A stretch of DNA of 64,000 nt from Acidobacteriota bacterium (lineage in GTDB: Bacteria; Acidobacteriota; Polarisedimenticolia; J045): the NCBI GenBank assembly GCA_030949985.1, contig JAUZRX010000024.1, forward strand, positions 2,526-66,525, read 5' to 3'. The notes beneath the pieces are model-generated. The model had not been told where the DNA came from, ran no database searches, and was given only the letters and a program-made list of their open reading frames with translations. Positions within the stretch are counted from its first letter, which is position 1, and the number at the start of each line of letters is the position of its first letter. Positions 16,733 to 37,002 of the stretch are shown piece by piece. The translations under genes and the position numbers were made by a program.

Positions 16733-17824
16733 TCAAGCGGGCGGCCGGCAGAGGCTGAGCACGCCGTGCAGGGGGAGGGTGGTATCCCAGCGGGGATCCG
16801 CCGTACAGCGCCGCAAGACCAGCCTGCCGCGTCGTCGGAGGGCGCCGGCCTCGCTGCGATTTCCCTGGCGCAGGTAGAGTTCCGGCTGGTCGAGCAGGGC
16901 TGCGCCCCGGAGGGCCGGCAGAGCCAGTTCCCGGCTCAGGGCGATGGCCCGGCGCGACCACTTCAGCCCCTCACCGCATCGTCCGGCAAGTGCCGCGCAG
17001 CGGGCGGCCGTGCGCAGGGACTCGATGCGGACCGGAGTTTTCGGCGAGCCCATCTGCAGCGCGCGTCGGCCGAGGGTCCATGCCGCGCGGCGACGTCCCT
17101 GGCGACGATAGACCTCGGCACGCACCGTCGTGGCCAGGGCCGCCACATCGTCGTCAGTCGGCGCATCGTCCGCGGTGCCGATCGCTTCGGCCAGCTCGAG
17201 GGCCTGCTTTGAGTGCGCCGTCGCGAGATGGCTGATCGCGCCCACCAGGCGGGTGAGAGGATCCGGCCTGAGGCCTGCGACCAGCAGGCCCGCCACCGCG
17301 GCCTGTCCGCCCCCGATCTGGGCGGTGGCCAGGGCCAGCACGTCGCCCCGGGATGGGGCGGAGGGCAGGGCCAGGCGGAGTACGTGGCAGGCCGCGTTCC
17401 AGCGGCCGAGGGCGGCTTCGGCCCGGCCCCAGCTGCGCAGACTGGGGCGGTCGAGGGCGGGCTGGCTCCTGGCGTGCAGCGCTCGCAGCACCCGTGTGGC
17501 CCCGAGCAGATCGCCGGCCGCCAGTGCCTGACGCCACCGGACCCGTCCCCCCGCGCCCTCCAGAAGATCTTCATCGAGCAGGGCCGCCAGGCGTGCGGTG
17601 GTTTCTCCGACGCCCTCGCCCAGGGCGCGCAGCAGGCTGAGATAGCGGGAAAGAGTGATGTCGGCCTGGCCCGTTTCCACCCGGGAGAGATGGGAACGGG
17701 TGACACGGACGCCTTCGCCGCGGGTGGCCCGTTCCACGTCGTCGAGCGAGAGTCGGCCTTCAAGGCGGATGTGGCGCAGGGCGCGGCCGAGAGTTGAACG
17801 CAGGGTCTGCTGGCGGGGATGCAT
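16733..17824 (-). CDS. XRE-family HTH transcriptional regulator with ~280-aa helical (TPR-like) C-terminal domain
   Basis: N-terminus MHPRQQTLRSTLGRALRHIRLEGRLSLDDVERATRGEGVRVTRSHLSRVETGQADITLSRYLSLLRALG fits HTH_3; GGAGGA RBS before ATG at 17824 (track ORF extends to 17929); rest Ala/Leu/Arg-rich helical. Confidence 0.65.
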   Translation of the reverse strand: MHPRQQTLRSTLGRALRHIRLEGRLSLDDVERATRGEGVRVTRSHLSRVETGQADITLSRYLSLLRALGEGVGETTARLAALLDEDLLEGAGGRVRWRQALAAGDLLGATRVLRALHARSQPALDRPSLRSWGRAEAALGRWNAACHVLRLALPSAPSRGDVLALATAQIGGGQAAVAGLLVAGLRPDPLTRLVGAISHLATAHSKQALELAEAIGTADDAPTDDDVAALATTVRAEVYRRQGRRRAAWTLGRRALQMGSPKTPVRIESLRTAARCAALAGRCGEGLKWSRRAIALSRELALPALRGAALLDQPELYLRQGNRSEAGALRRRGRLVLRRCTADPRWDTTLPLHGVLSLCRPPA

Positions 17825-18019
17825 CGCGAGTCCTCCTTGAATATGTTTTTTCGGTAGCCCCAGAGTGCCCCCGACGGGGTAGGAAAGAAAAGGGCCCGGG
17901 GCGGAAAAAGGCGACGTGGGAGGCGACAACCGCGAAACCTCGCGCTGGAGCGTGTGTTTTTTGTTGCATCGCTGCGTCCCCGTTTTGGGAATTGCCCCCG
18001 AGAGCGGGGCGTCGGGGAC

Positions 18020-20992
18020 TCAGGCGGTGACGACGGCGATCCGGGCCCGCACCGCGGTCAGCTCTTCGAGCAGCGAGAAGACGCTTGCGGGGCGCTGATT
18101 GGGATCTTTCGAGAGCAGGCGTGTGACCAGTTCTTCCACCGGTTGCGGGATGCCTTCCCGGAATCGGGAAATCGGTGGCGGCGGCTCTTCGATTTGCAGC
18201 CGCAACACCTCCGCCACGTTGTCCGATGCGAAGGGTTCCCGGCCCGTGAGCAAAAAATAGGTCAGTACGCCGATGGCGTAGAGATCGGCGCGCTGGTCCG
18301 CGGCTTCGCCGCGGATCTGTTCCGGGGCCATGTAGGCCGGCGAGCCCATCACCAGTCCTTCGCGGGTCAGGTGCACGTCGCCCTGGCGGGCGATGCCGAA
18401 GTCCACCAGCCGGGGCCGCCCCTCCTGGTCGAGCAGGACGTTTTCAGGCTTGACGTCCCGGTGAACGATGCCCAAGCGGTGGGCGGCGGCCAGGCCCGAG
18501 GCCACGCCGGAGATGAACTCGAGCACCTGGCCGAGGGGAATGGGATGACGGTTGCCGGCCCACTGGCGCAGGTCCACTCCGTCGATGTACTCCATGACGA
18601 TGAAGCGCAGCTCGCGCCAGCGTTCGAAGGTGTGGACCCGCACGATGTTGGGATGGTTGATCTGGCGCGTGAGTCGGATTTCCTGGATGAAACGCTTTTC
18701 CACCGTCTCGCCGATGGGACCGGAGAGTACCTTCAGCGCAACGGGTTCCTCGAGCACCAGGTCCCGTGCGGCGAAGACCGTACCCATGCCGCCGCGCCCG
18801 ATTTCCCGGAGGATCTCGTAGCGGTTGGCCAGCAAGGCGCCGGGCAGCAGGTGGGTACCGTGCAACTCTTCGAGAAGCTGCTGGGCCGAGCCGAGCCGAT
18901 GGGAACGATCGGGAACCAGGCAGCCTCGCACCACGCGCTGGAGCAGGTCCGGGATCGGGTGGCCCGCCCGCTCCGGCAGCCGCGGGGCTTCGGCGCCGCG
19001 GGGCGGGGGAGGGAGCGTACCGGTGAGCATCTCCCAGGCCAGCACGCCCAGCAGATAGATATCCGAAGACGGGTCGCAGCGCTCACCGCGCAGGGACTCC
19101 GGGGAGCGGTAAGCGGCAGGGAGGGTCGGATCGTCCGAGTGACGCAGGCCGATGCCGAAGTCGATCAGTCGGGCCTCGAACGATGTGCTGATGATGATAT
19201 TTTCCGGTCGCAGGTTGCGGGCCAGCAGGCCCAGTCCGTGGGCGTAGTCCAGGGCCTCGGCCAGGCGTGTGATGACCTGGATCGATCGCGGAACGTCGAG
19301 GGGGCCTTCGCTGGACAGGATCTCCCGCAGGGACTTGCCGGCGACATGTTCCTCGACGACGAAGATTCCCGCCCCGTCCCGGCCCGCATCGTGAATCGCG
19401 GCGATCGCCGGGTGGTGCAGCCGCGCGATGCGGCGGATATCCGCAAGGATTCTCTCGGCTGCCGACTCGGTGGGAATCAGGGGGGGCGCGAAGCGGCGCA
19501 GGACGACCCGCCGCTCCATGGTGCTGTCGATGGCCAGGAAGGCCTGACCGGGAACGTAGCCCTCCAGCGGCCCCTCGATGGTGTAGCGGTCGGGGGAACT
19601 CGAGGCCGGCCCTGGCTGCTGGTCGATACGTCGTTCGATCTGGGCCAGTCGCTGGGAGGCATCCCGGTAGTTCAACTCGAGGGCCACCACGCGGCCGAGA
19701 GCCGTGGCTGCGTCCCGCAGCTTGCCGGTGCGCTCGAGTACGTTGGCCAGGCGGTACCAGCCCTCCGGATCCGGCTCCCGCTCCGGGTCCGCCAACCCCC
19801 GGCGATAGTGGTCCGCCGCCACCGAGTCCATGCCCAGCCGCTCGAAGAGTCGGCCCAGCCGCATGGCGGCAGCGGTGGCGTCCTCGCTGTCGGCCGCGAT
19901 TCCCTGGAGCACGCGCACCGCCGCGTCCACGTCACCGCAGCGCTCGTAGAGTTCGGAAGCGGTCAGCCGTTCTCCCGCTTCCTCGTAGGCCCTCGCCGCC
20001 TCCGCCAGCTGGCCGCAGGCCTCCAGGCAGCGTGCCGCGTCACGGACCGAACCCGCGTCGCGGAAATGGCGCGCGGCGTCGGCGTAGTCCCCGGCCCGCT
20101 CCATGGCCGCCGCCGCGGCGACGATGTCTCCGGCCGCTTCGTGGGCCCAGGCGGCCTCCGCCGAGCACCCCAGTTGTTCGAGGCAGCCCGCCGCCTGGCT
20201 GGGGTGTCCCGATTCCAGGTAGAGAGCCGCCGCCTCGGCCCAGCGCGAAGCGGCGCGGAAGGCCTCCGCCGCCAGTTCGGGGTCGATTTCACCGGGGTTG
20301 AGCTTCTCGGCGATCTCGGCGGCGCGTTCGTTTTCGCCCGCGGCGAGAAAGGCGCGGATGGCTCGCTCCGGTCGGTGGGCCCGGGCCCAGGCGGCGGCGG
20401 CGTCCCGTGAGCGGCCCGAGCGTTCGAGCCAGCGGGCCCCGCGGTCGGGAATGCCGCTGGCGAGAAACTGTTGCCCGAGCCGGGCCGCCAGGCCCAGCAC
20501 CTCTTTCTGGTCCACGCGGACGTTGCCCGAGCGCAACAGGCTCTCGAGGCAGCGCTCGGCCTTGTCCGGGCAGCGGGCCTCGATGAACAGCCGAGCGGCC
20601 CGAAGAAAATCGCCGGTGTGTTCGTAGAGCGTAGCCGCCGGCTCGGGATGTCCGAGTTGCTCGTGAATCTCGGCGGCCCGCCGGGCCTGGTTGGCCTGGA
20701 CGAAGAGGCGGGCGGCCCGCTCCCGGTCGCCGCAGCGGAGGGCCATCTCGGCGGCCTCGAGAGTCATGCCGCCCATCTCGTACTCCCGGGTCGCGGTGGC
20801 GTGTTCGCCGAGTTCCGAGGCGACCTGGCCGGCGAGGCGATGGTGGCGGCCTTTTTGGTACATTTTCAGCGCCTGGCTGAGTTCACCACCCAGCCGGTAG
20901 AGATCGCCCGCGGTGGAATAGTCTCCCCTCAGGGCGGCCCACCTGGCTTTTCTTGCCCATCCTCGCGCCATCATATGCTCGGGGAAGAACAT
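18020..20992 (-). CDS. Multidomain Ser/Thr protein kinase: N-terminal helical repeat array, pseudokinase domain, then active Hanks-type kinase domain
   Basis: C-terminal domain carries all catalytic motifs (GRGGMG, VALKVL, HRDVKPEN, DFG, APE). The preceding kinase-like domain has DFG but K->R (VVLRRF) and HRD->ARN. The N-terminal ~500 aa are ~19-20-aa repeats (GD..AA..Y/FE..G). Preferred start MFFPEH (GGAGATCC RBS) avoids overlap with the divergent gene; the track ORF extends to 21154. Confidence 0.8.
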   Translation of the reverse strand: MFFPEHMMARGWARKARWAALRGDYSTAGDLYRLGGELSQALKMYQKGRHHRLAGQVASELGEHATATREYEMGGMTLEAAEMALRCGDRERAARLFVQANQARRAAEIHEQLGHPEPAATLYEHTGDFLRAARLFIEARCPDKAERCLESLLRSGNVRVDQKEVLGLAARLGQQFLASGIPDRGARWLERSGRSRDAAAAWARAHRPERAIRAFLAAGENERAAEIAEKLNPGEIDPELAAEAFRAASRWAEAAALYLESGHPSQAAGCLEQLGCSAEAAWAHEAAGDIVAAAAAMERAGDYADAARHFRDAGSVRDAARCLEACGQLAEAARAYEEAGERLTASELYERCGDVDAAVRVLQGIAADSEDATAAAMRLGRLFERLGMDSVAADHYRRGLADPEREPDPEGWYRLANVLERTGKLRDAATALGRVVALELNYRDASQRLAQIERRIDQQPGPASSSPDRYTIEGPLEGYVPGQAFLAIDSTMERRVVLRRFAPPLIPTESAAERILADIRRIARLHHPAIAAIHDAGRDGAGIFVVEEHVAGKSLREILSSEGPLDVPRSIQVITRLAEALDYAHGLGLLARNLRPENIIISTSFEARLIDFGIGLRHSDDPTLPAAYRSPESLRGERCDPSSDIYLLGVLAWEMLTGTLPPPPRGAEAPRLPERAGHPIPDLLQRVVRGCLVPDRSHRLGSAQQLLEELHGTHLLPGALLANRYEILREIGRGGMGTVFAARDLVLEEPVALKVLSGPIGETVEKRFIQEIRLTRQINHPNIVRVHTFERWRELRFIVMEYIDGVDLRQWAGNRHPIPLGQVLEFISGVASGLAAAHRLGIVHRDVKPENVLLDQEGRPRLVDFGIARQGDVHLTREGLVMGSPAYMAPEQIRGEAADQRADLYAIGVLTYFLLTGREPFASDNVAEVLRLQIEEPPPPISRFREGIPQPVEELVTRLLSKDPNQRPASVFSLLEELTAVRARIAVVTA

Positions 20993-21086
20993 AGGATCTC
21001 CCCCCGCCGGGGGGCCACTACCGACTTCGGTCAGAAGTGCTGGTCTCGTGCTAGCTTGGGCGCCAGACTGGCAGAAGGAAGCCCAG

Positions 21087-22931
21087 ATGACCGCTAGACC
21101 CCTGATCGACATGTTGCGCCGGCTGACCCCACCCGCGATCGAGGAGATCCTCATGCGGGAGCGGGTGGTTCGGCGTGCCCAGGCTTACGCGGCCGAAAAT
21201 CGCGTGGACGAGGTCTGGCTCGAGCGGGGCGCCCTGCGGGCTCACGTGTCGGGATCGTCGGAAACGCCCTACCACGCCGTGATTCGCCTGCGGGAGGGGC
21301 ATCTGGATGCCGAATGTTCCTGCCCCTACGAGCGCGGGCTGTGCTGGCATGTGGGGGCCATCCTGCTGACTCTCTCGAGCCACGGAGAACTGATCGACGC
21401 CCTCGAGGAAAACCTGGCCCCCGTCCTCCAGGAGGAGGAAGGCAGCGGGCCTGCCACCGCCGAGGATGACCAGGCGGGCGCTCCGGCCCCGCAAGGCGGG
21501 GTCCGCGCTGCGGGACCCACCGCCGCCCAGCAGGCCGCCTTGCGCCAGGCCCGCCGGGAGGAAGTGCAGGAACATCTGCTGGGCTGGCCTCGCCAGCGCC
21601 TGGTGGACCTGCTGACCGAGTTGGCCCTGGACGACGCCGGAGTGGAGGCCCGGATCCAGCGTTTCCAGGAGGAGCCCACCGACATCGACCTGCGGCTTTT
21701 TCGGCAGGCTGGAAAGACGGCTCTCCGCCCGGGGGTCGTGTTGGATCGCTACGAGGTGGCCCGTATCGCCGCGGACTTGCACGAGGTGGCCGCTTCGGTG
21801 CGGCGCCTGGTCCATTCCGGGCACCCGGAGCAAGCCCTGGATCTGCTGCTGGAACTGGCCTCCATGGCCTGGGCTCGGGCGGCCGAAGTGGACGACCGGG
21901 ACGGGGCCCTCGAAGGATTCGTGCGGGAAGTCCTGCGCACCTGGATCCAGGGCTGGGAAGAGATCGACGGGCGGGACCGCCAGCGCCTGGCTCGCGAGGT
22001 TTTCGGCTGGCTGATGGAGGACGCCGGGGCCCTGACCCGAGGCCTGATCTTCGAGGGCCGTGGGACCCTCGGACCGACCGGTCTCGAGACGCTGTCGAAC
22101 CTGCTCGCGCCGTTGCTCGAGCAGCGGCAGCAGCAGCGTCCGGCCATCCTGGGCGGAGAGGATGGCTGGACCCACGCGGATCCCCTGGCGGAGCGGATTC
22201 GGGCGGCCTTGCGGGAAACCGCCGAGGCCCGTGGCGACCTGGATGAATTTCTGCGGCACTGCGACCCGTCGGGAGGGCACGGCGTCGAGGTGCTGGCGGC
22301 TGCCCGCCGCCTGGAGAGAGAGGGCCGGCTCGACGAGGCCCTGGACTGGGTCGAAAAAGGTCGTCGCCGGGCCCGCGGCACGGCCCGGGCCAGCCTCGAG
22401 GACCTGCGGATTTCCCTGCTCCACCGCCTCGGTCGCAGGCGCCAGGCCATCGAGGCCGCCTGGGAGATCTTCGTCGCTCAGCCCGGGGCCCACACCTTCG
22501 CTCGACTCCAGGAAACGGCCGGCGAGCACGAACGCGGGCAATGGCGGACCCGGGCGATCGACCATGCGGAGGCCAGTTCGGATGCCACGGCTTTCGTGGA
22601 GATTTGCCTGGCGGCCCGGGAGGTCGAGCGGTTGGCGCATCGCCTCGATGCCAGCCCGGGCTTCATCCTGGCCGCCGCGCCGACAGTCCTGGAGCGGACC
22701 GCGCTGATGCTCGAAGATCGCAGCGCCTGGGCGTCTATGAAGATCTACCAGCACCTGGCGACCCGCCTGCTCGCCGAGGGCGACGCACGGCACTACGGCA
22801 AGGTCCGGGAGCATCTGGAAGGCCTTCGCCGGGCCTGCGGGAAAGACGAGAACGGTCCTGCCTGGGAGGCACACCTCGAGCAGCTGGCCAGGAACTTCGC
22901 CGTGGTACGGGCCTGGTTCCCGTCGCCATAG
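21087..22931 (+). CDS. SWIM zinc-finger family protein (N-terminal SWIM CxCx7CxH, long helical C-terminal region)
   Basis: HLDAECSCPYERGLCWHVGAILL matches the SWIM CxCxnCxH signature; AGGAAG RBS before ATG 21087 (track ORF from 21048); divergent from the kinase gene. Confidence 0.7.
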   Translation: MTARPLIDMLRRLTPPAIEEILMRERVVRRAQAYAAENRVDEVWLERGALRAHVSGSSETPYHAVIRLREGHLDAECSCPYERGLCWHVGAILLTLSSHGELIDALEENLAPVLQEEEGSGPATAEDDQAGAPAPQGGVRAAGPTAAQQAALRQARREEVQEHLLGWPRQRLVDLLTELALDDAGVEARIQRFQEEPTDIDLRLFRQAGKTALRPGVVLDRYEVARIAADLHEVAASVRRLVHSGHPEQALDLLLELASMAWARAAEVDDRDGALEGFVREVLRTWIQGWEEIDGRDRQRLAREVFGWLMEDAGALTRGLIFEGRGTLGPTGLETLSNLLAPLLEQRQQQRPAILGGEDGWTHADPLAERIRAALRETAEARGDLDEFLRHCDPSGGHGVEVLAAARRLEREGRLDEALDWVEKGRRRARGTARASLEDLRISLLHRLGRRRQAIEAAWEIFVAQPGAHTFARLQETAGEHERGQWRTRAIDHAEASSDATAFVEICLAAREVERLAHRLDASPGFILAAAPTVLERTALMLEDRSAWASMKIYQHLATRLLAEGDARHYGKVREHLEGLRRACGKDENGPAWEAHLEQLARNFAVVRAWFPSP

Positions 22932-22965: not shown

Positions 22966-23454
22966 TCAGACTCCCGGGAGAGCTTCGAGCAGGACCACCA
23001 CCCGCGTCCCGTCGCCGTTTCCGCCGGCCTCCACCGAAGCCCAGGCGAGGGTCCCACGGATCTGGCCGATGGCCTGCTCCTCGCTGGGGTGTCTGCTGAG
23101 ATCCTCGAACTCCGGCCGGCCCACGATCGTTCGCAGGGCCTCGAGAGCGGCCGCGACGCTCTCTTCCGCCGGAAGTTGCCCGGCATCCAGCCGATACCAC
23201 GCCACCGACAGCGGGCTTGCGCCGAAGCGACCCTGGTCGAGCAATCTCCAGGATTTCGGCCAGGGCACTTCGGGCGGGGCCTCGGGCGGGGTGGCGAGAG
23301 CTCCGGCGCGTGGCCCGCCTTCCGGGAAGAGGGCTGCGCCCGTCGGGGCGTCCTCCGCTCCGGCCCGCCGGTCAGCGTTGTCGGCAGGGCCGCAACCTGC
23401 GGCCAGGAGCGTCGTCAGCAGAAGCGATGCGAGCCGGGCGCTGCGGAATCCCAT
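22966..23454 (-). CDS. Small lipoprotein (162 aa), unknown function
   Basis: MGFRSARLASLLLTTLLAAGCGPADN: signal peptide plus lipobox LAAGC. Confidence 0.55.
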   Translation of the reverse strand: MGFRSARLASLLLTTLLAAGCGPADNADRRAGAEDAPTGAALFPEGGPRAGALATPPEAPPEVPWPKSWRLLDQGRFGASPLSVAWYRLDAGQLPAEESVAAALEALRTIVGRPEFEDLSRHPSEEQAIGQIRGTLAWASVEAGGNGDGTRVVVLLEALPGV

Positions 23455-23576
23455 GGCCCGAGCATGGCACGAAGCCCCCCGGCTCCGCCATCGCCGGGGC
23501 GGTGTTTCCCGCGCGGCAGGGACCTATATTCGCCGGGAAGGTGTGCGGGACCGCTGAACGGCGGCGCGAGGAGACC

Positions 23577-25022
23577 GTGCGGACGACCAGAGGAGTCGAG
23601 ACCACCCCCGTCATCGAAGCGGGTACCGAGTTCGCCGGAGGATGGCGGGTCGAGCGGGTATTGACGGAGGTTGCCGGCCTCGAAGCCTACTACGCCGTCG
23701 ATGGCGCCTACGGGCGGGCGATTTGCTTCCTGCTGCCGCCCGACGCTCCAGACCCCGAACTCGACGAGGAGGCCGCCGCAGCCTGGGGCACGACGCGCTG
23801 CATTCTGAGAGATCCGGTCCTCGGACGTATCGTCCTCGATGAAGTGCCCGAGGGACCTCTCTTCGCCGACCGGCTCGCGGAGGGCTGGACTCCCGGCGCG
23901 GCCTTCCTCGATCCGATCAGCACCGTCCTTCGCCGGGAGCACCGCCGGGGGCGCTGGCACGGTCAACTGGCGCCCGATCGTGTGGTTCTGGGAGCGGACC
24001 ACGTAGCCATCGCCGGGTGGGGACTGTGTGACGGGGACGCTTCCGATCTCAGGGCGCGGGACCTGGCAGGTCTGGCCGCCCTCTCCGGTCACGCCGATCG
24101 CTCCAGGGGCGGCGTCGGAGACGCCGGGCCCGGGGGCTCCGACAGGTCGGTGTCGCCGTCGTCCGCGGCCCTCTCCGCGCTCTGTGCCGCGATGGCTTCC
24201 GATCATCTCCCGACCCTGCGGGCGGCCCTCGATCGCTGGCGCGAAGATGGGGGAGACGAGCAAGTTCCCGAGTATCGAAGGGCGCTCGACGCCCTCGAGC
24301 GCATCGAACGCAAGGTCGACGAACACCTGGAAGCCGCTCGCCTGCAGGTCGAGCGCGGCGATCCCCTCGGGGCCGTGGCGGCCTGCCGGGAGGTCGTTCG
24401 CCTGGGCGCCGAGGACCGGGCCTTGCCCCTGATGAAGCAGGCCCGGCGCCAGGCCCGGGACATGCTCGGCGGCCGCCGGCCTTTCGTGCGCCGCGCCTGG
24501 ATTGTCGCGGCGGGAGCGGTGGGGCTGCTTCTCTGCGGCCTGCTGGGCTGGTGGTTGATGGGTCGGGGCGGGGACAGTGGCGAGATCGCGCGGCAGGCGG
24601 CACTGATGGCGCGGACGCACGGGGAGCGGGCCGTGATCGCCTGGTTGCTCGATCTCAGGGTGACGGGGGAGAGTTCCGCCGAGACCGAGGCCCTGCTCAC
24701 CGGGCACCTCCAGGCGCTGGCGGCCCAGGAACGGCAGAAGATGCTGGAGCTCCGGCGGGAAATCGTTTCCCAGGGGGCGAGGCCCCGCCAGGCCGATCGC
24801 CTGGCCGAGGAATCGCTCGCCCGGCTGGACGCCCTGGCCGCCGCCGATCCGCTCAGCGCTGGTTTCGGAACGCGCCTGACCCGGGTCCTGATCGACGTGG
24901 ACAAGGCGGCGGCCCGTTACCGGGCGGGAGCACGGATCGACAACGCCAGCGCCCTGCGGGCCGTCGAGCAACTGCTTCGCGAAGATCCTCTCTTCGGTGC
25001 GGCTGGAGGAGAAAAACGATGA
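23577..25022 (+). CDS. Membrane-anchored kinase-like pseudokinase with periplasmic helical domain
   Basis: N-terminal ~230 aa resemble a protein kinase fold with every catalytic motif degenerate (AICFLL for VAIK, HGQLAPDRVVL for HRDLKPENILL, VAIAGWGLC for DFG). Single TM AWIVAAGAVGLLLCGLLGWWLMG, then ~150-aa helical ectodomain. GTG 23577 after GAGGAG; alternative GTG 23541. Track ORF 23217 overlaps the opposite lipoprotein gene. Confidence 0.5.
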   Translation: MRTTRGVETTPVIEAGTEFAGGWRVERVLTEVAGLEAYYAVDGAYGRAICFLLPPDAPDPELDEEAAAAWGTTRCILRDPVLGRIVLDEVPEGPLFADRLAEGWTPGAAFLDPISTVLRREHRRGRWHGQLAPDRVVLGADHVAIAGWGLCDGDASDLRARDLAGLAALSGHADRSRGGVGDAGPGGSDRSVSPSSAALSALCAAMASDHLPTLRAALDRWREDGGDEQVPEYRRALDALERIERKVDEHLEAARLQVERGDPLGAVAACREVVRLGAEDRALPLMKQARRQARDMLGGRRPFVRRAWIVAAGAVGLLLCGLLGWWLMGRGGDSGEIARQAALMARTHGERAVIAWLLDLRVTGESSAETEALLTGHLQALAAQERQKMLELRREIVSQGARPRQADRLAEESLARLDALAAADPLSAGFGTRLTRVLIDVDKAAARYRAGARIDNASALRAVEQLLREDPLFGAAGGEKR

Positions 25023-26773
25023 GCGGCCTCGGTGCCATGCCCGGCAGGTTCCGGTGTCCCGCCGTCTGGGTTCTCTTCGTACTCCTGGGAGTGTCGGGGC
25101 CGAGCCAGGCGCTCCGCCTGGGGAACCGCGCTGCTGCGGACAGGAGCGCGGCGCGGCCCCTGCGGGAGGTCGATCTGGTGCGCGTACTCGCCGGCGAGGT
25201 CGAGGCGGGCGCCGCCGCGAGAGCGGCTCTCGAGCGCCTGCCCGCCCGCTGTCGACCGAGTCGGGCCCTGGCGAAGGAGGCCTGCGACGACGATCTCCGC
25301 TGCGCCTGGCTCTACGCCCGGGGCGAGGTGGTCCGTGCCTGGAGCGCTGAGGTGGCGCGGGGGCGGAAAGATGCGGCGGCCTGGCTGCACCGTGCGGCGG
25401 ACCGCCTGGCCGCCGGCGGGGCCTGCGGGCGCGGGGCGGCGCGCCGGGGAGCGTGGGAAGCCGATCGCCGCCAGGCGGCCGTGGATGATGGACGGGTTCA
25501 GCTGGCTCGGTTGCTGGAAGTGCGCCGACGGACCCACGCCGCCCTGCTGGCGGGAAGCGTCGCGCGCAGGGTGGAAGCGCTGGTGGCGGCGGCTCGTACG
25601 CAGGGTCTCGGGGCCGTCGATCCTCAGGCCCTCGCCGCCTTGCGCGGCGAGATCTTCACTGCCGCCCAGCGTGGCACGTGGTTGCTGGCCCACCCGGGGC
25701 TGGATCGGTTCCGCAAGATCCTGCAGGGGCTGTGGCAGCCCGCGGGGGGCATGCCCCAGGGCTGCGGAGACGAACTTTTCCGGCCCGATCTGCTGGACGA
25801 CCAGTGGCGCGGCTACCTGGTGCGTGAGGTCGTCCCCAGGGCCCTGTCCTGCCTGTCCGACGGTCTGCCCCGGGCCCTGGCCGGCAAGGGGCTGGCGCCC
25901 GCGGATCCCGTCGCGGGGAAGGATGTGGCCCGGGCTCTCGAGGCTCTCGCCCGGCGGGATTCCGGCGGACGCCATTTCTCGAGGGATCCTGCTCTCGGAG
26001 CCCGAATGGAGGCACTGGAAAGGGCGTTTCGCGCCGGGCGGCAGGTGGCCTCGAGGCCCGTCGCCGCGACTTCCTCTCCCGAGGCGGCCAGGCGGCCGGT
26101 GCCGGCACCTCCCCCCCGTCGGTCGCCCCGATCCTCGGGAGGCCGGGCTCCGCGGAAAGTCGCGCCCGCTCCCGCGAAGGTCGCCTCCCGCAGCGATCCC
26201 CTGCTGGTGAGGCGGGCGGAGAAGGTCCAGCGATTCCTGGAGACTCGGGAAGAACTGGTCGCCGCCGCCCGGGCGGCGAGGGACTCCCGTGCCCGCCGGC
26301 GTCTCGTCCAGCGGCTGGTGGTCGCCCTGCACCGCGGGGTGTGCGCCCCCCTCGAGAAGCTGGATCCCGTCGAACTCGCCGCCGCTCGGCGGGTCTTGCT
26401 CGACCTGGGATACCAGGCCGACGAGGCCGCCTGCAGCGCCAGGGAGGGGGAGGCCTACCTCGACCAGTTGCTGGAAGCGGCGGAAAATCTCCAGCGGCTA
26501 CGGACGGTGGCGCTGATGCGCCGGGCGGCACGGGAGATCGCCGATCGCAGCCCCAGCCTGGCGCTGGTCACCCTCGATCATGTGCCCAAGCGCTTCCAGG
26601 GGAGTTCGTGGACCCTCCTGCGGGCCTGGGCGGCCCGGGAGGAGGGTGATCACGTGACGGCCGACCGGCTGCTCTCGCGCATGGACGAGGAAACCCTCGA
26701 TCGTCTGCGCGCCAGCGGACAGGAAGAACTGGCGCGGGTGGTGGCCCACGCCTGGGTCGCGCGCTCGCCCTGA
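25019..26773 (+). CDS. Secreted/periplasmic Cys-containing helical protein (584 aa), unknown function
   Basis: ATG overlaps upstream stop (ATGA); GGAGGAG RBS; signal peptide MSGLGAMPGRFRCPAVWVLFVLLGVSGPSQA; no recognisable domain. Confidence 0.55.
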   Translation: MSGLGAMPGRFRCPAVWVLFVLLGVSGPSQALRLGNRAAADRSAARPLREVDLVRVLAGEVEAGAAARAALERLPARCRPSRALAKEACDDDLRCAWLYARGEVVRAWSAEVARGRKDAAAWLHRAADRLAAGGACGRGAARRGAWEADRRQAAVDDGRVQLARLLEVRRRTHAALLAGSVARRVEALVAAARTQGLGAVDPQALAALRGEIFTAAQRGTWLLAHPGLDRFRKILQGLWQPAGGMPQGCGDELFRPDLLDDQWRGYLVREVVPRALSCLSDGLPRALAGKGLAPADPVAGKDVARALEALARRDSGGRHFSRDPALGARMEALERAFRAGRQVASRPVAATSSPEAARRPVPAPPPRRSPRSSGGRAPRKVAPAPAKVASRSDPLLVRRAEKVQRFLETREELVAAARAARDSRARRRLVQRLVVALHRGVCAPLEKLDPVELAAARRVLLDLGYQADEAACSAREGEAYLDQLLEAAENLQRLRTVALMRRAAREIADRSPSLALVTLDHVPKRFQGSSWTLLRAWAAREEGDHVTADRLLSRMDEETLDRLRASGQEELARVVAHAWVARSP

Positions 26774-26803: not shown

Positions 26804-27358
26804 TCAGGTCGTTTCTTTCTTCACGGGAGCAAGAGTGACGGAAAGATCCCGTCCCATCATCTGGCGGGAACGGTCCTCGGGAATGCCGTGCTCCTGGACC
26901 GCTTCCACCACGCGGTCGAGCACCATCTCTCCCATTTCGGGGCGGCGCATTTCACGCTTGCGGTACATCACGGTGACGCGCACCTTGTGCCCCTGGTCGA
27001 GAAACTTGATCACTTTCCGTGTCTTGGTTTCGAAGTCGTGTTCATCGATGGCAGGCCGGTACTTGATCTGCTTGACCTCGACCTGGTGCTGCTTTTTCTT
27101 GGCGGCCTGAGCCTTCTTCTGCTGCTCGTAGTTGTACCGCCCGTAGTCCATGATGCGGCAGACGATGGGTCGGGCATCGGCGGCGACTTCGACGAGATCC
27201 AGGCCCTTGGACTGGGCGATGGAGAGGGCTTCTTCGACCGGGACGACGCCCACCTGCTGGCCCTCTTCATCGATCAGCCGGACGGGGCTGATGCGGATCA
27301 TGCGATTGATACGGACCTTGGGTGGGCCCTGACGTTCTACGATTCCTGGTCTTCTCAT
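26804..27358 (-). CDS. infC: Translation initiation factor IF-3
   Basis: VRINRMIRISPVRLIDEEGQQVGVV...PIVCRIMDYGRYNYEQQKKAQAAKKKQ...TVMYRKREMRRPEMG aligns to IF3 N and C domains; exact start (AUG vs non-canonical) uncertain. Confidence 0.9.
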   Translation of the reverse strand: MRRPGIVERQGPPKVRINRMIRISPVRLIDEEGQQVGVVPVEEALSIAQSKGLDLVEVAADARPIVCRIMDYGRYNYEQQKKAQAAKKKQHQVEVKQIKYRPAIDEHDFETKTRKVIKFLDQGHKVRVTVMYRKREMRRPEMGEMVLDRVVEAVQEHGIPEDRSRQMMGRDLSVTLAPVKKETT

Positions 27359-32222: not shown

Positions 32223-33725
32223 CTACTCCGAGTCGACGCTGGCGACGGCCTTGATTTCCTCTTCGCTGTGTCGGTCGCCGTCGTAGCCCAGGCGGCGGGG
32301 CTTACGGGATACGATGGTCTCCAGGTAGACCGGTCGGCGCCAGATGCGGGCGATCGACGCCAGCACTTCCTGCGCCCAGTCCAGACGCAGTTCGACACCC
32401 TCGTGGTGATGGACCAGGAGCAGTTCCGCCCGATTGCGGTAGTTGCCGTCCACGATCTCGATGATCGGCGTGCCGGCATTGGTCAACTGGAAGAGCAGGG
32501 CCCGCTTGACCTTCTCGAATTCGCGGGAGGCCAGCACCCAGGCCTCCTGGCGGGGGTCCCGTGCGAAGGTGAAGAGCTTGTGCTGGTGGCAGAATTCCGG
32601 GGTCAGAAACTCATCGATGAAGCTCAGGTCGGAGTGGACCTTGCGCACCTCGAAGATCTTTTCCCGCCCCAGGCCGGTCTCCCGTTTCCAGTTGGCCCGT
32701 TCCGCCATGTCGTCGCAACTGCGCCATTCGGGGCCGAATCGTCCCGTATTCCAGCGGAACTCGATGTCCCGGAAGAGCTCGAGGCCCAGCTTGTAGGGGT
32801 TGAGTCGGCCCGGCTGCACGGCTGTGGTTCCCGAGTGGTGATCGGCGAAGTCGATGATTTCGGTGTCGTCGAGCAGGTGCCGGGTCAGGATCGTCGTGTG
32901 CCAGTAACTGGCCCAGCCCTCGTTCATGATCTTGGTCTGGCGCTGGGGCAGGAAGTAGTAGGACTCCTTTCGGATGATGTCCAGCACGTCCTGCTCCCAG
33001 TTCTCCAGCGGCGCATGCTTGAGCAGAAAGCCGAGGATGTCCCGCTGGGGGCGTGCGGGGAAACCGCGACGCTGTTCACGCTCGCGTTCCAGCGCGGCAC
33101 GCTTGCGCTCGATGTACTCCGGCGGGTTGATGAAGGCGTCCATGTAATCCTTGGCCTTCAGGCGCTTGACTTCGATGGGCGCTTCGGAGACGTCTTCGAT
33201 CCGACCCAGGCCGTACTGCTGCTCGAAAGCCGCGTGGGGGTCGATCAGGTCTTCGATGGCCAGGCAGTCATCGAGGAAGCGTTCGATCTTGTCGATTCCG
33301 TGCTGATCGCGGTAACGCCGTACGCGTGTGGCGTGGTTGGCCATCGCGTCGATCATCCGGCGATTGGTGTTGGAGAAGAAGACGTTGTGTTTGAAAAAAT
33401 CGGCGTGGCCGTAGACATGGGCCATGACCAGCTTGTGATCGAGAAAGGAGTTGCCCTCGAGCAGGTAGGCGTAGGTCGGATCGTTGTTGATCACCATCTC
33501 GTAGATCTTGTGCAGGCCGTACTCGTAGGATTTATCGAGTTGCTGGAACTCCATGCCCCAGCGCCAGTGCGGGTAGCGGATGGGAAATCCCGTATAGGCT
33601 GCGAGCTGGTTCATCTGCGCATAGTCGACCATCTCGAAGATGACGGGGAAAGTGTCGAGTCCGTAGCGGGTGGCGACGGCTTCGACTTCCATTTGCAGTT
33701 CGGCGAGTTCCCGCGGCAGCGTCAT
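32223..33725 (-). CDS. spoVR: SpoVR/YcgB family protein
   Basis: 500 aa; [47 protein letters not shown] typical SpoVR; third gene of prkA operon. Confidence 0.9.
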
Positions 33726-33728
33726 CGC

Positions 33729-34838
33729 TCATCTCCCCGTCGAAAGAAACGAACGAATGGCTTCGGGAATGCCTTCCTTGCCCTCGATCACCGTGAGCAC
33801 CACGCGCTCGTCTTCACCGAAGGGTTTTTCGAGATCGTGCAGGTACTGGCCCGATCCGTAGGGGCTTTCCACCTGGCCGTAGGCGAAGAGGTTGAGTTCC
33901 GGGAGAAGGTCCTCCGCCAGCAGTTTGACGCAGGACTCGGTGTCTCCCTGGGACCAGTTGTCGCCGTCGGAGAACTGGAAGAGATAGAGGTTCCACTCCT
34001 CGGGAGGAAAGCGGTCCTGGATGATTTTCTGCACGAGGTGGTAGGAGCTGGAGATCACCGTGCCGCCGCTCTCCCGGGTGCTGAAGAAGGTGTCCCGGTC
34101 GACTTCCCGGGCCTGGGCGTCATGGATGACGAAGACTGTTTCCAGGCCGCGGTACTGGCTGCTCAACCAGGTGTCGATCCAGAACGAAGCGATGCGGACG
34201 ATTTCTTTCTGCTCGTCTCCCATCGATCCGGAGACGTCCATCACGTAGATGATCACCGCGTTGGCCTGGGGCTGGGGATGGGTCTGAAAGGTCCGGTAGC
34301 GTTTGTCTTCGCGGATCGGGATGATGATCGGATTCTTCGGATCATAGACCCCGGCGGCGATCTGCCGTTGCAGCGCCCGCCTGAAGGTGCGCTTGAAATG
34401 CCTGAGGGACTCCGGTCCCGCGTGGGAGATCCCGGTGTAACGTCCCGAGTGGGTTTCGATGTTCTTCTTGCCCCGGGGTTGGATTCGAGGCAGCTCGAGT
34501 TCTTCGCCCAGCAGTTCCGCGAGTTCCTCGATGGTCAGATCGACCTCGAGGATGTGTTCGCCGGGCAGATTGCCGGCCTTGCCCCGGCCGTCACCCTGCT
34601 GGCCGGCAGGTCCCAGAATGCTGCCTTCCTCGCCTTCTCCCTGTCCGACGTGCTGTTGACCGCCGGGGGAGTGGACGAAGCGTGGGGTTTGAATCCGCGG
34701 CAGGGGAATGGAAACGATGTTCTTTCCCTTGCGTCCGAGCATCTCGCCGCGCGACATGAAGCGCCGCAGCTCGTCGCGGACCTTGCCGCGGACGATTTCG
34801 CGGAAGCGTCCGACATCGGTGTCGATCTTGAGGGCCAC
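33729..34838 (-). CDS. yhbH: YeaH/YhbH family protein (DUF444, VWA-like)
   Basis: 369 aa; Gly/Gln-rich linker then [20 protein letters not shown] (MIDAS-like) typical DUF444. Confidence 0.9.
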
Positions 34839-34853
34839 GTTCTGTCCCGCCCG

Positions 34854-36908
34854 TCAGTCCGTGTCCTTGGCATCGCCCCGGGCAAAAATGCTCGCGACGA
34901 AATGCAGCACGTCGGTGGCGCTTTCGTCGTTGTAGCCGTAGTCCTTGATCAGGCGCGCCTTGACCACGTCGATCTTCTCCTGGGTTTCCTTGTCGACGAT
35001 GGAGGTCACCAGGGAAGTCAGCTTGATCGTGTCCTTCTGGTCCTCGAAAAGCTTGAGTTCGAGAGCCTTGTGCAGTCGTTCGTTGGAGCGGTAGTCGAAC
35101 TTCTTCTCGTCCACTGCAAGGGCGCCGATGTAATTCATGATCTCCCGCCGGAAGTCGTCTTTCCGGTTGTCGGGGATGTCGATCTTTTCCTCGATCGAGC
35201 GCATCAGCCGTTCATCGGGTGGCTCGTCCTGGCCGGTGTAGGGGTTGCGGACCTTTTCCCGCTGGGTATAGGCCTTGACATTGTCCAGGTAGTTGGCGCA
35301 GAGCCGGGAGATCGCCGCCTCGTCGGCGGCGATGGCCCGCTGCACCTCGTTCTTGACGATGTCTTCGTACTCCTTGCGCACCTCGGCGAGCAGTTCGCGG
35401 TAGCGCGCGCGATCCTCCTCGTTGCTGATCAGCGAGTGGTGGCGCAGTCCCGCTTCGAGTTCGCGGAGGACCATGAAGGGGTTGATATGGTTGGCGGTGT
35501 CGTCCACCAGCGCGTTGGAGATCTTGTCCTGGATATAGCGCGGCGAGATGCCGTCGAGCCCTTCGCGGGCCGCACTCTTGCGCAGTTCCTTGACGTTGTC
35601 TTCGGTGTAGCCCGGAAGGGTCTTGCCGTTGTAGAGCTTGAGCTTCTGCATCAGCGTCAGGTTGTGCTTCTTGGGCTCTTCCAGCCGCGTCAGCACGGCC
35701 CACATGGCGGCCATCTCGACCGTGTGCGGGGCGATGTGCTTGCCGATGCGCTCGTTGTTGAAGTCTTTCGCGTAGATCTTGATCTCTTCGCTGAGCTTGG
35801 TGATGTAGGGAATGTCGACCTTCACCGTCCGGTCCCGCAGGGCCTCCATGTATTCGTTGTTCAGCAGCTTGCGGTACTCGGGTTCGTTGGTGTGGCCGAT
35901 GATCACCTCGTCGATGTCGGTCTGGGGGAACTTTTTCGGCTTGATCTTGTGCTCCTGGGAGGCGCCGAGCAGGTCGTAGAGGAAGGCGACGTCCAGCTTG
36001 AGGACCTCGACGAACTCGATCAGGCCGCGGTTGGCGATGTTGAATTCGCCGTCGAAGTTGAAAGCGCGGGGATCGGAGTCGGAGCCGTATTGGGCGATCT
36101 TGCGGTAGTTGATGTCGCCGGTCAGTTCGGTGGAGTCCTGGTTCTTCTCATCCTTCGGCTGGAAGGTGCCGATGCCGACGCGGTCCTTTTCGGAGAGAAT
36201 CAGCCGTCGGACTCGAATGTGGGCCAGCACTTGGGCCAGGTCGCCCTCGAAGCGCTGCATCAGCTCGCTGAATTGCTGGCGGCAGAAGGGACAGAGATCG
36301 CGCTCGATGCGTACCTGGTAGTCGGAGCCCGAGGCGTTGAGTTGTTCGACGACCGCCGGGCGAGTGGATTCCGGCAACAGGTGCAGCGGCTCCTCGTGCA
36401 TCGGGCACCAATCGACCGGCGCGCCGGGGTCGTCGGGCTTGGCGGTCCAGCCGAAGGTGTAGAGCATGCCCTCCTGGGAGCGGGAGTAGGCTTCGAGCCC
36501 CTTCTTGAGCAGCCGGACGATGGTGCTCTTGGCCGAGCCTACCGGACCATGGAGCAGGATCACGCGTTTTTCGGTGCCATAGCGCCGGGCGGCGGACTTG
36601 AAGATGTTCATCAACTTCATCAGCGAAATGTCGAGCCCGAAGACACCGTCGATGCCGCCGCCGAGAGGGTCGTCGAAGAAGTGGTAGTGAGTCATCCGCT
36701 TCTTGTTGTCGATGTACTCGGAAGTACCGTAGGACATGATCATGTCGTAGAGGCGCTCGTGGGCGCTGCGCGTGATGCGGGGTTGCTCGCGCACCATGCC
36801 GAGGTAGTCGGTGAAGGATCCGGTCCAGTGCTGCTTTTTGAACTGCTCCCGGTTCTGTGCGCTGGTGATCGCCTCTAGAATGCTCTTGCCGGTGTCTGTG
36901 GTGGCCAT
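34854..36908 (-). CDS. prkA: PrkA/YeaG-family serine protein kinase (AAA+ N-domain)
   Basis: Walker [14 protein letters not shown], 684 aa; start MATTD (track ORF extends 14 codons further). Confidence 0.95.
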
Positions 36909-37002
36909 GGTCTGGGCTCCTGTGGCTCGGATTCTCCGGCGGGGCCGCACCGGTCTCGCGGGAGTCCGCGCTGCTGCGGCAGCTTCACTTCGAAGATAGC
37001 TT

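Follow-up and report, generated by a model that had tools for sequence, protein, structure and literature searches.

The 64-kb window, by which we mean the whole stretch of Acidobacteriota DNA analysed here, has a G+C content of ~68–70% and contains long open reading frames (ORFs) in many frames. This study concerns two ORFs that follow one another on its plus strand. ORF1 (23577..25022, +) starts with GTG and encodes 481 residues, predicted to form a bitopic inner-membrane protein (N-terminus in, C-terminus out) that carries a dead kinase-like domain. ORF2 (25019..26773, +) starts with ATG and encodes a predicted secreted, all-alpha protein of 584 residues. A Shine–Dalgarno-like GAGGAG can be read 5′ of the ORF1 GTG (23568..23573, +), and a GGAGGAG Shine–Dalgarno sequence for ORF2 lies within the 3′ end of ORF1 (25005..25011, +). 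The stop codon of ORF1 and the start codon of ORF2 overlap as ATGA (25019..25022, +), as had been noted in a first-pass annotation made from the DNA letters.

ORF1 and ORF2 are real, co-directional plus-strand genes under purifying selection. The ORF1 product is identical to the NCBI entry "hypothetical protein Q9Q40_07305" (481 residues) from an Acidobacteriota metagenome-assembled genome (MAG), and with 24 further sequences the set of full-length ORF1 homologues numbers 25; ORF2 has 16. The first-pass annotation had considered the alternative that two antisense ORFs (23415..24971 and 24917..26332) are the coding ones, and had argued that GC3, the G+C content at third codon positions, together with signal-peptide, membrane-helix and ribosome-binding features, favors the plus strand. 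GC3 alone cannot tell the strands apart between 23.6 and 26.8 kb, because the plus and antisense ORFs have codon position 2 in common. The substitutions, however, are informative. Antisense coding should produce an excess at plus-strand codon position 1, whereas the excess is observed at position 3, which corresponds to antisense position 1. Relative to the closest homologous locus (L006), the substitutions at plus-strand codon positions 1/2/3 amount to 77/55/220 in ORF1 and 122/107/276 in ORF2, and the excess at position 3 is repeated relative to two more distant loci. Moreover, homologues exist only for the plus-strand products and not for the antisense ORFs, the homologous plus-strand frames of the three loci checked (L001, L004 and L006) contain no internal stops, and the AlphaFold2 (AF2) models are confident, with predicted local distance difference test (pLDDT) scores of 84 for ORF1 and 83 for ORF2. 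Despite the length of the antisense ORFs and the silence of GC3, it is therefore close to impossible that they code instead, or that ORF1 and ORF2 are chance products of the high G+C content.

The arrangement of the two genes is conserved as well. Seventeen distinct loci were compared, of which 13 have two genes with a 4-nucleotide overlap, two carry a fused gene, and two lie on contigs that end before ORF2. An ATGA or GTGA overlap with a GGAGG-like site upstream of it, at the same place as in the window, was found in the window and 10 other loci, and the called genes also overlap by 4 nucleotides in L021 and L023; the overlap is thus kept in all 13 two-gene loci. Translational coupling of ORF1 and ORF2, which the first-pass annotation had proposed, is supported by this overlap and by the ribosome-binding site inside ORF1, both of which persist in every two-gene locus.

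The N-terminal region of ORF1 (residues 15–170; 23619..24086, +) resembles a truncated Hanks-kinase domain, comprising an N-lobe, a hinge, alphaD/alphaE and the catalytic-loop and DFG positions, followed by a single helix with an invariant aspartate, D162. The AF2 model contains strands at residues 23–32, 35–42, 47–52, 73–79 and 83–90, helices at 96–101 and 108–123, and strands at 136–138 and 143–145. These elements appear in the order of the kinase fold: a five-stranded N-lobe sheet with alphaC, the hinge, alphaD/alphaE, the strand pair of the catalytic loop and the DFG position. In a Foldseek comparison of the model with the PDB, the top 50 matches were all protein kinases (E from 5e-5, probability 1.0), and 44 matches had E ≤0.001. 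The best were bacterial Hanks kinases, namely Stk1 (E 5e-5), then PknB and PknA, and PknG and YabT were also matched. Alignment of ORF1 residues 1–175 with a small kinase alignment by hhalign gave a probability of 96.5% (E 7e-10), with residues 15–153 corresponding to kinase columns 1–154 of 265. The ORF1 family profile, run against PDB sequences, retrieved mainly protein kinases, with CaMKII at E 0.004 followed by StkP and others, the few other matches being designed helical proteins; the kinase matches line up at HxxGxxH-RD-LKPxN and DFG. Against 1.84 billion representative proteins, the same profile found 23 family clusters (E <1e-30) and then, with E-values set apart from these by 25 orders of magnitude, ~45 weak matches confined to profile positions ~10–190. 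Nine of the ten out-of-family weak matches that were scanned are proteins of the Pfam Pkinase family. The kinase fold proposed in the first-pass annotation for the cytoplasmic part of ORF1 is therefore borne out by structure comparison, by the comparison with a kinase alignment, and by both profile searches. The similarity escapes the standard models: no Pkinase match was found for ORF1 in Pfam even at E 0.1, none of the ORF1 homologues has a precomputed Pfam domain, and NCBIfam gave no kinase match for ORF1.

The catalytic elements are all replaced. The sequence TEVAGLEA occupies the place of the G-loop GxGxxG, the beta3 (VAIK) lysine has no counterpart, and the glutamate position of alphaC is likewise changed. 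HRD is represented by H128-G129-Q130, the catalytic-loop lysine by A132, the catalytic-loop asparagine by R135, and DFG by an invariant G147-W148-G149. These replacements are conserved across the 25 ORF1 homologues. The loss of every catalytic element, in a conserved manner, justifies the label pseudokinase, at the level of sequence, and agrees with the earlier description of all the catalytic motifs as degenerate.

The earlier annotation had, in addition, named the N-terminal 230 residues of ORF1 as the part to compare with kinase profiles. The likeness to kinases stands, but its extent is smaller. The similarity ends directly past the DFG position (residue ~153), and neither an activation segment nor an APE motif can be recognized in ORF1. 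Comparison of residues 150–300 with the kinase C-lobe by hhalign revealed no confident similarity past residue 153, and the best Foldseek alignments span ~150–200 columns, with a target-normalised TM-score of 0.34–0.41. A forced alignment of the ORF1 sequence GDPLGA with the kinase DPxxRP motif had zero confidence and was not used. The helix at residues 155–169, which contains D162, may act as a stand-in for alphaF, and the helices at residues 194–298 might be a C-lobe in altered form. As a side observation, in two proteins weakly matched by the ORF1 profile, P0062 (298 residues) and P0065 (617 residues, with four PASTA domains), the Pfam kinase match likewise ends near profile position 148; other bacterial membrane proteins may thus also contain kinase-like domains truncated past the DFG region.

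The kinase-like domain is followed by a variable linker (residues 171–193; 24087..24155, +), which is disordered in the model (pLDDT <50 for residues 174–192) and varies in length in the family alignment. Next comes a separate cytoplasmic five-helix domain (residues 194–298; 24156..24470, +), which bears the motifs SDHLPTLR and GDPLGAVAACRE.IRLGAE. This is the most conserved part of ORF1, with most of the invariant columns and the highest mean conservation (0.67), and the profile search of the 1.84 billion proteins found no relatives of it outside the family. A single transmembrane (TM) helix spans residues 305–328 (24489..24560, +). It has a hydropathy peak of 2.12, contains the sole windows above 1.6, and is a helix in the AF2 model; an arginine-rich sequence lies just N-terminal of it. 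The remaining 153 residues (329–481; 24561..25019, +) are predicted to form a periplasmic six-helix domain, with the helices of the model between residues 333 and 469. Hydropathy and the AF2 model thus agree with the one TM helix and the periplasmic helical domain of ~150 residues described in the first-pass annotation.

ORF2 begins with a putative signal peptide (residues 1–31; 25019..25111, +), in which R10 and R12 precede the core AVWVLFVLLGV, and SQA is followed by LRL. Inspection of the sequences reveals the n/h/c pattern and an A-x-A-like site in all 16 homologues, and cleavage after SQA31 is probable. The mature part is predicted to consist of two all-alpha domains. The N-terminal domain (residues 36–345; 25124..26053, +) contains six conserved cysteines (78, 89, 95, 136, 249 and 278) and an invariant DQWRG.LVRE motif. 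A disordered linker rich in Pro, Arg, Ser and Ala (residues 346–392; 26054..26194, +; pLDDT <50 for residues 348–389), again of variable length in the alignment, connects it to the C-terminal domain (residues 393–584; 26195..26773, +), which holds C442 and C472. Of these eight conserved cysteine columns, C89 and C136 are replaced jointly, and only in the same two homologues, as expected of a disulfide pair.

Similarity searches with ORF2 were without result outside its own family. ORF2 has no match in Pfam, NCBIfam or PADLOC, and the Pfam scans of both proteins returned only sub-threshold HHH_8 and SPOR lines (E 0.06–0.1), which we take as noise. In the PDB, sequence comparison gave one chance match (E 0.72), and the best Foldseek match (E 0.84) was among generic helical-repeat proteins. 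A second, profile-based search yielded nothing beyond the same 16 clusters. The earlier description of ORF2 as a signal-peptide-bearing, cysteine-containing protein with no recognizable domain therefore still fits. The two domains of ORF2 and the cytoplasmic helical and periplasmic domains of ORF1 are not duplicates of one another, judging from hhalign comparisons among them (probability ≤2%). Separately, a word-index protein search found no cluster identical to the full 584-residue ORF2, only a 340-residue, 100%-identical fragment (Q9Q13_11650) from another MAG; ORF2 may be annotated differently, or be unannotated, in its source MAG.

The strongest support for ORF2 as a partner of ORF1, also an idea of the first-pass annotation, comes from a natural fusion, which in addition marks the likely interface. 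An exhaustive profile search found two proteins from diverged lineages, P0050 (653 residues) and P0051 (759 residues), in which a complete ORF1 is followed in one frame by the C-terminal domain of ORF2. BLASTP aligns the fusions to ORF2 residues 429–584 with E-values of 6e-24 and 2e-30 and identities of 41–44%. Four contigs, obtained in three sequencing runs, carry P0051, whose locus is fully syntenic (kinase, DUF6880, small gene, PMT, fusion, infC). P0050 lies between a ferrochelatase gene and infC. The two fusions share 41% identity, and the unfused P0011 and P0012, each from a locus with the usual gene pair, interleave with both in the distance tree. Assembly error was considered as the origin of the fused forms and appears unlikely, given the four independent contigs from several runs, the syntenic locus and the second lineage. 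The fusion may have arisen twice. The fusion joins the two parts where ORF1 ends in the periplasm, and it shows that the C-terminal domain of ORF2 operates in the compartment of the ORF1 C-terminus, in line with the predicted topology. Most likely, the C-terminal domain of ORF2 touches the ectodomain of ORF1.

We propose that ORF1 and ORF2 assemble across the inner membrane into a complex of two proteins whose function does not depend on kinase catalysis, and we assign this reading a probability of roughly 55%. A periplasmic location of ORF2 is suggested by its putative signal peptide, the eight conserved cysteines, the joint loss of C89 and C136, and the fusion at the periplasmic end of ORF1. 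That the two families share the same narrow distribution also speaks for the proposal. In the proposed mechanism, ORF2 would be exported by Sec and would fold with four disulfides, and its C-terminal domain would dock on the periplasmic helical bundle of ORF1, as the coupling and the fusion suggest. Docking would hold the N-terminal domain of ORF2 in the periplasm on a flexible tether of ~45 residues, where it might bind a ligand or an envelope component, and ORF1 could couple this binding to the cytoplasmic side, where a partner protein may find a docking or allosteric platform in the dead kinase-like domain together with the conserved helical domain. The strongest constraint falls in the cytoplasmic helical domain, which fits a conserved cytoplasmic partner. 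Candidates for the partner are a Hanks kinase, of which the neighboring TPR-pseudokinase-kinase is an example, and the GT-C glycosyltransferase whose gene directly precedes the pair in most genomes.

Several observations weigh against this proposal. No ligand-binding or enzymatic fold is detectable in ORF2 by Foldseek, and the analysis identified no output partner of ORF1. In the fused loci (L017–L020), tblastn does not find the N-terminal domain of ORF2, so its role is dispensable there or it is encoded elsewhere. The fusion and the coupling show that the two proteins function jointly and do not by themselves define an interface. Finally, invariant residues surround the former active site (H122, H128, W148 and D162) and could mean a non-canonical activity instead of pure scaffolding. 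Some proteins first regarded as pseudokinases have proved to catalyse other reactions, and the invariant residues at the former catalytic and Mg-binding positions of ORF1 (H122, H128-G129, G147-W148-G149 and D162) would be in keeping with an enzyme that has a non-canonical active site. Nevertheless, the G-loop, the VAIK lysine, the alphaC glutamate position, the HRD aspartate, the asparagine and the DFG aspartate are all replaced, no C-lobe can be recognized, and invariant glycine and tryptophan residues would be just as expected if they formed a structural core or filled the nucleotide pocket. We consider an enzymatic role of the domain very unlikely.

Both candidates for the cytoplasmic partner are encoded in the neighborhood of the pair, in the window or in related genomes. 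The soluble Ser/Thr kinase (18020..21154, −) combines, according to Pfam and its sequence, TPR-like repeats, a degenerate kinase-like domain and an active kinase domain, and is itself a tandem pseudokinase-kinase: its residues ~530–770 form the degenerate domain (HRD changed to ARN, and the VAIK lysine to Arg), and residues 779–1023 form the canonical one. Because its homologues align only from residue ~62 and the long reading frame runs into the neighboring gene, translation probably begins at M55 or M62, near 20992–20971, giving a protein of ~983–990 residues. The neighboring gene, divergent from the kinase, encodes a protein with a SWIM zinc finger and DUF6880 (21048..22931, +; Pfam E 1.3e-23). 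It usually accompanies the TPR-kinase, with L023 having the kinase without it. The kinase gene is followed immediately, without a change of strand, by a gene for an HTH_31 protein (16733..17929, −), and HTH_31 follows the kinase in L004 too, which suggests an operon of a kinase and a transcription factor. A 162-residue lipoprotein with an LAAGC lipobox (22966..23454, −) is encoded divergently from ORF1. It has no family match, its homologues occupy the same place in most loci, and it may form part of one functional unit with the pair. On the other side, infC, identified by Pfam and encoding IF3 (26804..27358, −), is convergent with ORF2 and was found downstream in all 12 assessable loci.

Gene order in this region is kept far past any operon, including infC and genes for an aminotransferase, an aldehyde dehydrogenase and a radical SAM protein. 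The window represents core chromosome, with a ribosomal protein cluster, SecY, RpoA, CarB, PNPase and IF2. A defence-island reading was rejected on this ground, and because the PADLOC matches (PD-T4-6 and others) cover only the kinase domain of the kinase. Between 22900 and 27500, a promoter scan found no sigma-70-like promoter and terminator-like sites only at chance level, and an Rfam scan found no RNA family. Elsewhere in the window, a string of SpoVR, DUF444 (YeaH-like) and PrkA genes (32223..36950, −) constitutes a conserved PrkA-type stress module.

The ORF1 and ORF2 families are restricted to a single clade of Acidobacteriota. All relatives in the 23 clusters, defined at 50% identity, come from Acidobacteriota MAGs or metagenomes, and 11 loci were found among 185,579 species-representative genomes. 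Within this clade, the surroundings of the pair vary. A TPR-kinase is encoded within ~7 kb upstream in 9 of the 12 assessable loci, including the fused-gene locus L017, and is missing near the pair in L001, L005 and L013, each with 8–10 kb of upstream sequence. In 12 of the 17 loci (L001, L002, L005, L010, L011, L013–L017, L021 and L023), the pair is immediately preceded, on its own strand, by a gene for a PMT/PMT_2 (GT-C) glycosyltransferase, which overlaps or abuts ORF1 in L001, L005 and L013. No PMT gene adjoins the pair in the window, in its nearest relatives (L006, L004 and L007) or in L020, and none is present within the 64-kb window. In one clade, a ferrochelatase gene precedes PMT with a 4-nucleotide overlap; in the window, ferrochelatase is likewise not beside the pair. 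PMT is, on the whole, the more intimate neighbor of the pair than the TPR-kinase.

The first-pass annotation had proposed a periplasmic sensing role for the pair, which could exert allosteric control over the neighboring Ser/Thr kinase through pseudokinase-kinase dimerization. The N-lobes of receptor-type Hanks kinases are known to dimerize, the best structural matches of ORF1 are kinases of this type, and the kinase gene recurs near the pair in the nine loci given above. However, this gene lies outside the operon, on the opposite strand and with two genes between. The kinase already has its own tandem degenerate kinase-like domain, and comparison of the ORF1 profile with it revealed generic catalytic-loop resemblance only, with no specific relationship. 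Moreover, ORF1 has no recognizable C-lobe, so that only contacts of the N-lobe type would be possible. Since the whole region is syntenic, proximity may reflect descent and not function, and for this reason, and because the kinase is absent from three loci, we give its proximity little weight. Control of this kinase by the pair is thus unlikely. An alternative to be taken equally seriously places the pair in envelope glycosylation, as an accessory or regulatory subunit of a machinery with the PMT-type glycosyltransferase at its core. The dead domain would then be a cytoplasmic regulatory handle, resembling the pseudokinase domain of mycobacterial MviN/MurJ. The position of PMT directly upstream and on the same strand in most loci, with overlap or abutment in three, speaks for such a role. 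TPR-type modules are attached to some GT-C enzymes, and by analogy the helical, predicted periplasmic ORF2 may be comparable to them. Conversely, PMT does not adjoin the pair in five loci, including the window, and in one clade a gap of 215 nucleotides separates PMT from ORF1 and ferrochelatase belongs to the same string, so that the adjacency is not obviously functional. We regard this role as a minority possibility, rather unlikely as it stands.

The proposed non-catalytic complex of ORF1 and ORF2 can be combined with either partner in a bolder form. In this form, the ORF1 domain of ~160 residues would be a new minimal kinase fold within a new type of trans-envelope receptor that has a secreted, tethered partner and controls a Hanks kinase or a GT-C glycosyltransferase without phosphotransfer of its own. 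The N-lobe and the catalytic-loop core would have been kept, and the activation segment and most of the C-lobe would have been replaced by the unrelated conserved helical domain. We offer this extension as speculative and doubtful. If the truncated fold is true, it would help to define the minimal part of a kinase domain that is able to persist as a scaffold.

The two genes are real and conserved and represent a new family, and their function is what we infer from the features described above. The distinctive traits of the pair are the truncated kinase fold, the dedicated secreted partner with a natural fusion, and the distribution in one clade. Bacterial pseudokinases are few and poorly understood. 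The ORF1 family lies beyond the reach of the Pfam kinase model, and the bacterial pseudokinase complement is therefore probably larger than catalogued. The pair also offers a case, accessible to experiment, in which a dead kinase-like domain is linked to a secreted partner of its own. Its impact is limited by the uncultured status of the hosts, the confinement to a single Acidobacteriota clade, and the lack of an assigned phenotype or output partner.

Literature searches, confined to one searchable library, retrieved nothing on the ORF1/ORF2 family in Acidobacteriota, nor on DUF6880. In the partnerships of ExoR with ExoS/ChvG and of RseB with RseA, a bitopic signalling protein is bound on its periplasmic side by a helical or repeat protein that is exported by Sec. 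ORF1 and ORF2 would follow the same partner logic, as a functional analogy only. There is no homology, and where those systems have a histidine kinase or an anti-sigma domain as output module, ORF1 has a dead kinase-like domain; neither a sigma factor nor a response regulator was found adjacent to the pair.

In fold, the closest systems are the receptor-type Hanks kinases (PknB, PknA and Stk1/StkP), according to both the structure and the sequence-profile matches. They share with ORF1 the order of kinase fold, one TM helix and extracytoplasmic domain. ORF1 differs from them in that its catalytic residues are all replaced, neither an activation segment nor a C-lobe can be recognized, PASTA or other known sensor domains are absent, and Pfam Pkinase does not match it. 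A 2025 atlas of bacterial Ser/Thr kinases describes seven pseudokinase families, including the MviN/MurJ pseudokinase domain (ActPs3), all collected via Pfam PF00069 (bioRxiv 10.1101/2025.01.12.632604). Similar to ORF1, these are conserved bacterial kinase-fold lineages that lack the VAIK lysine, the HRD aspartate and the DFG aspartate and are linked to the membrane, and some of them likewise have deleted activation loops or C-lobe helices. They differ from the ORF1 family in partner genes and in phylum. ORF1 probably falls outside the seven families because it is below PF00069 detection.

The closest system in architecture and probable mode of action is EssB/YukC, the membrane pseudokinase of the type VIIb secretion systems of Firmicutes (PDB 6Z0F, 4ANN and 4ANO; PMC9600267). 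Unlike EssB/YukC, ORF1 belongs to a diderm Acidobacteriota host, and no type VII secretion genes, such as those for an EssC-type ATPase, EsaA or WXG100 proteins, lie near it; its neighbors are the lipoprotein, SWIM/DUF6880, Ser/Thr kinase, infC and aminotransferase genes, and elsewhere PMT and ferrochelatase. ORF1 does not match Pfam YukC, and no EssB/YukC protein is found among its 30 PDB profile matches (E ≤10) or its top 50 Foldseek matches. ORF1 also possesses a shorter kinase-like part, an extra conserved cytoplasmic helical domain of 100 residues and a dedicated secreted partner. Nevertheless, when compared with the domain limits given for EssB/YukC (PMC9600267), ORF1 has the same predicted single-pass, N-in plan, in which a cytoplasmic pseudokinase is joined by one TM helix to an all-alpha extracytoplasmic domain. 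In both, the extracytoplasmic domain is without known relatives. EssB/YukC works as a protein-interaction hub and not as an enzyme, and for ORF1 this is the probable mode.

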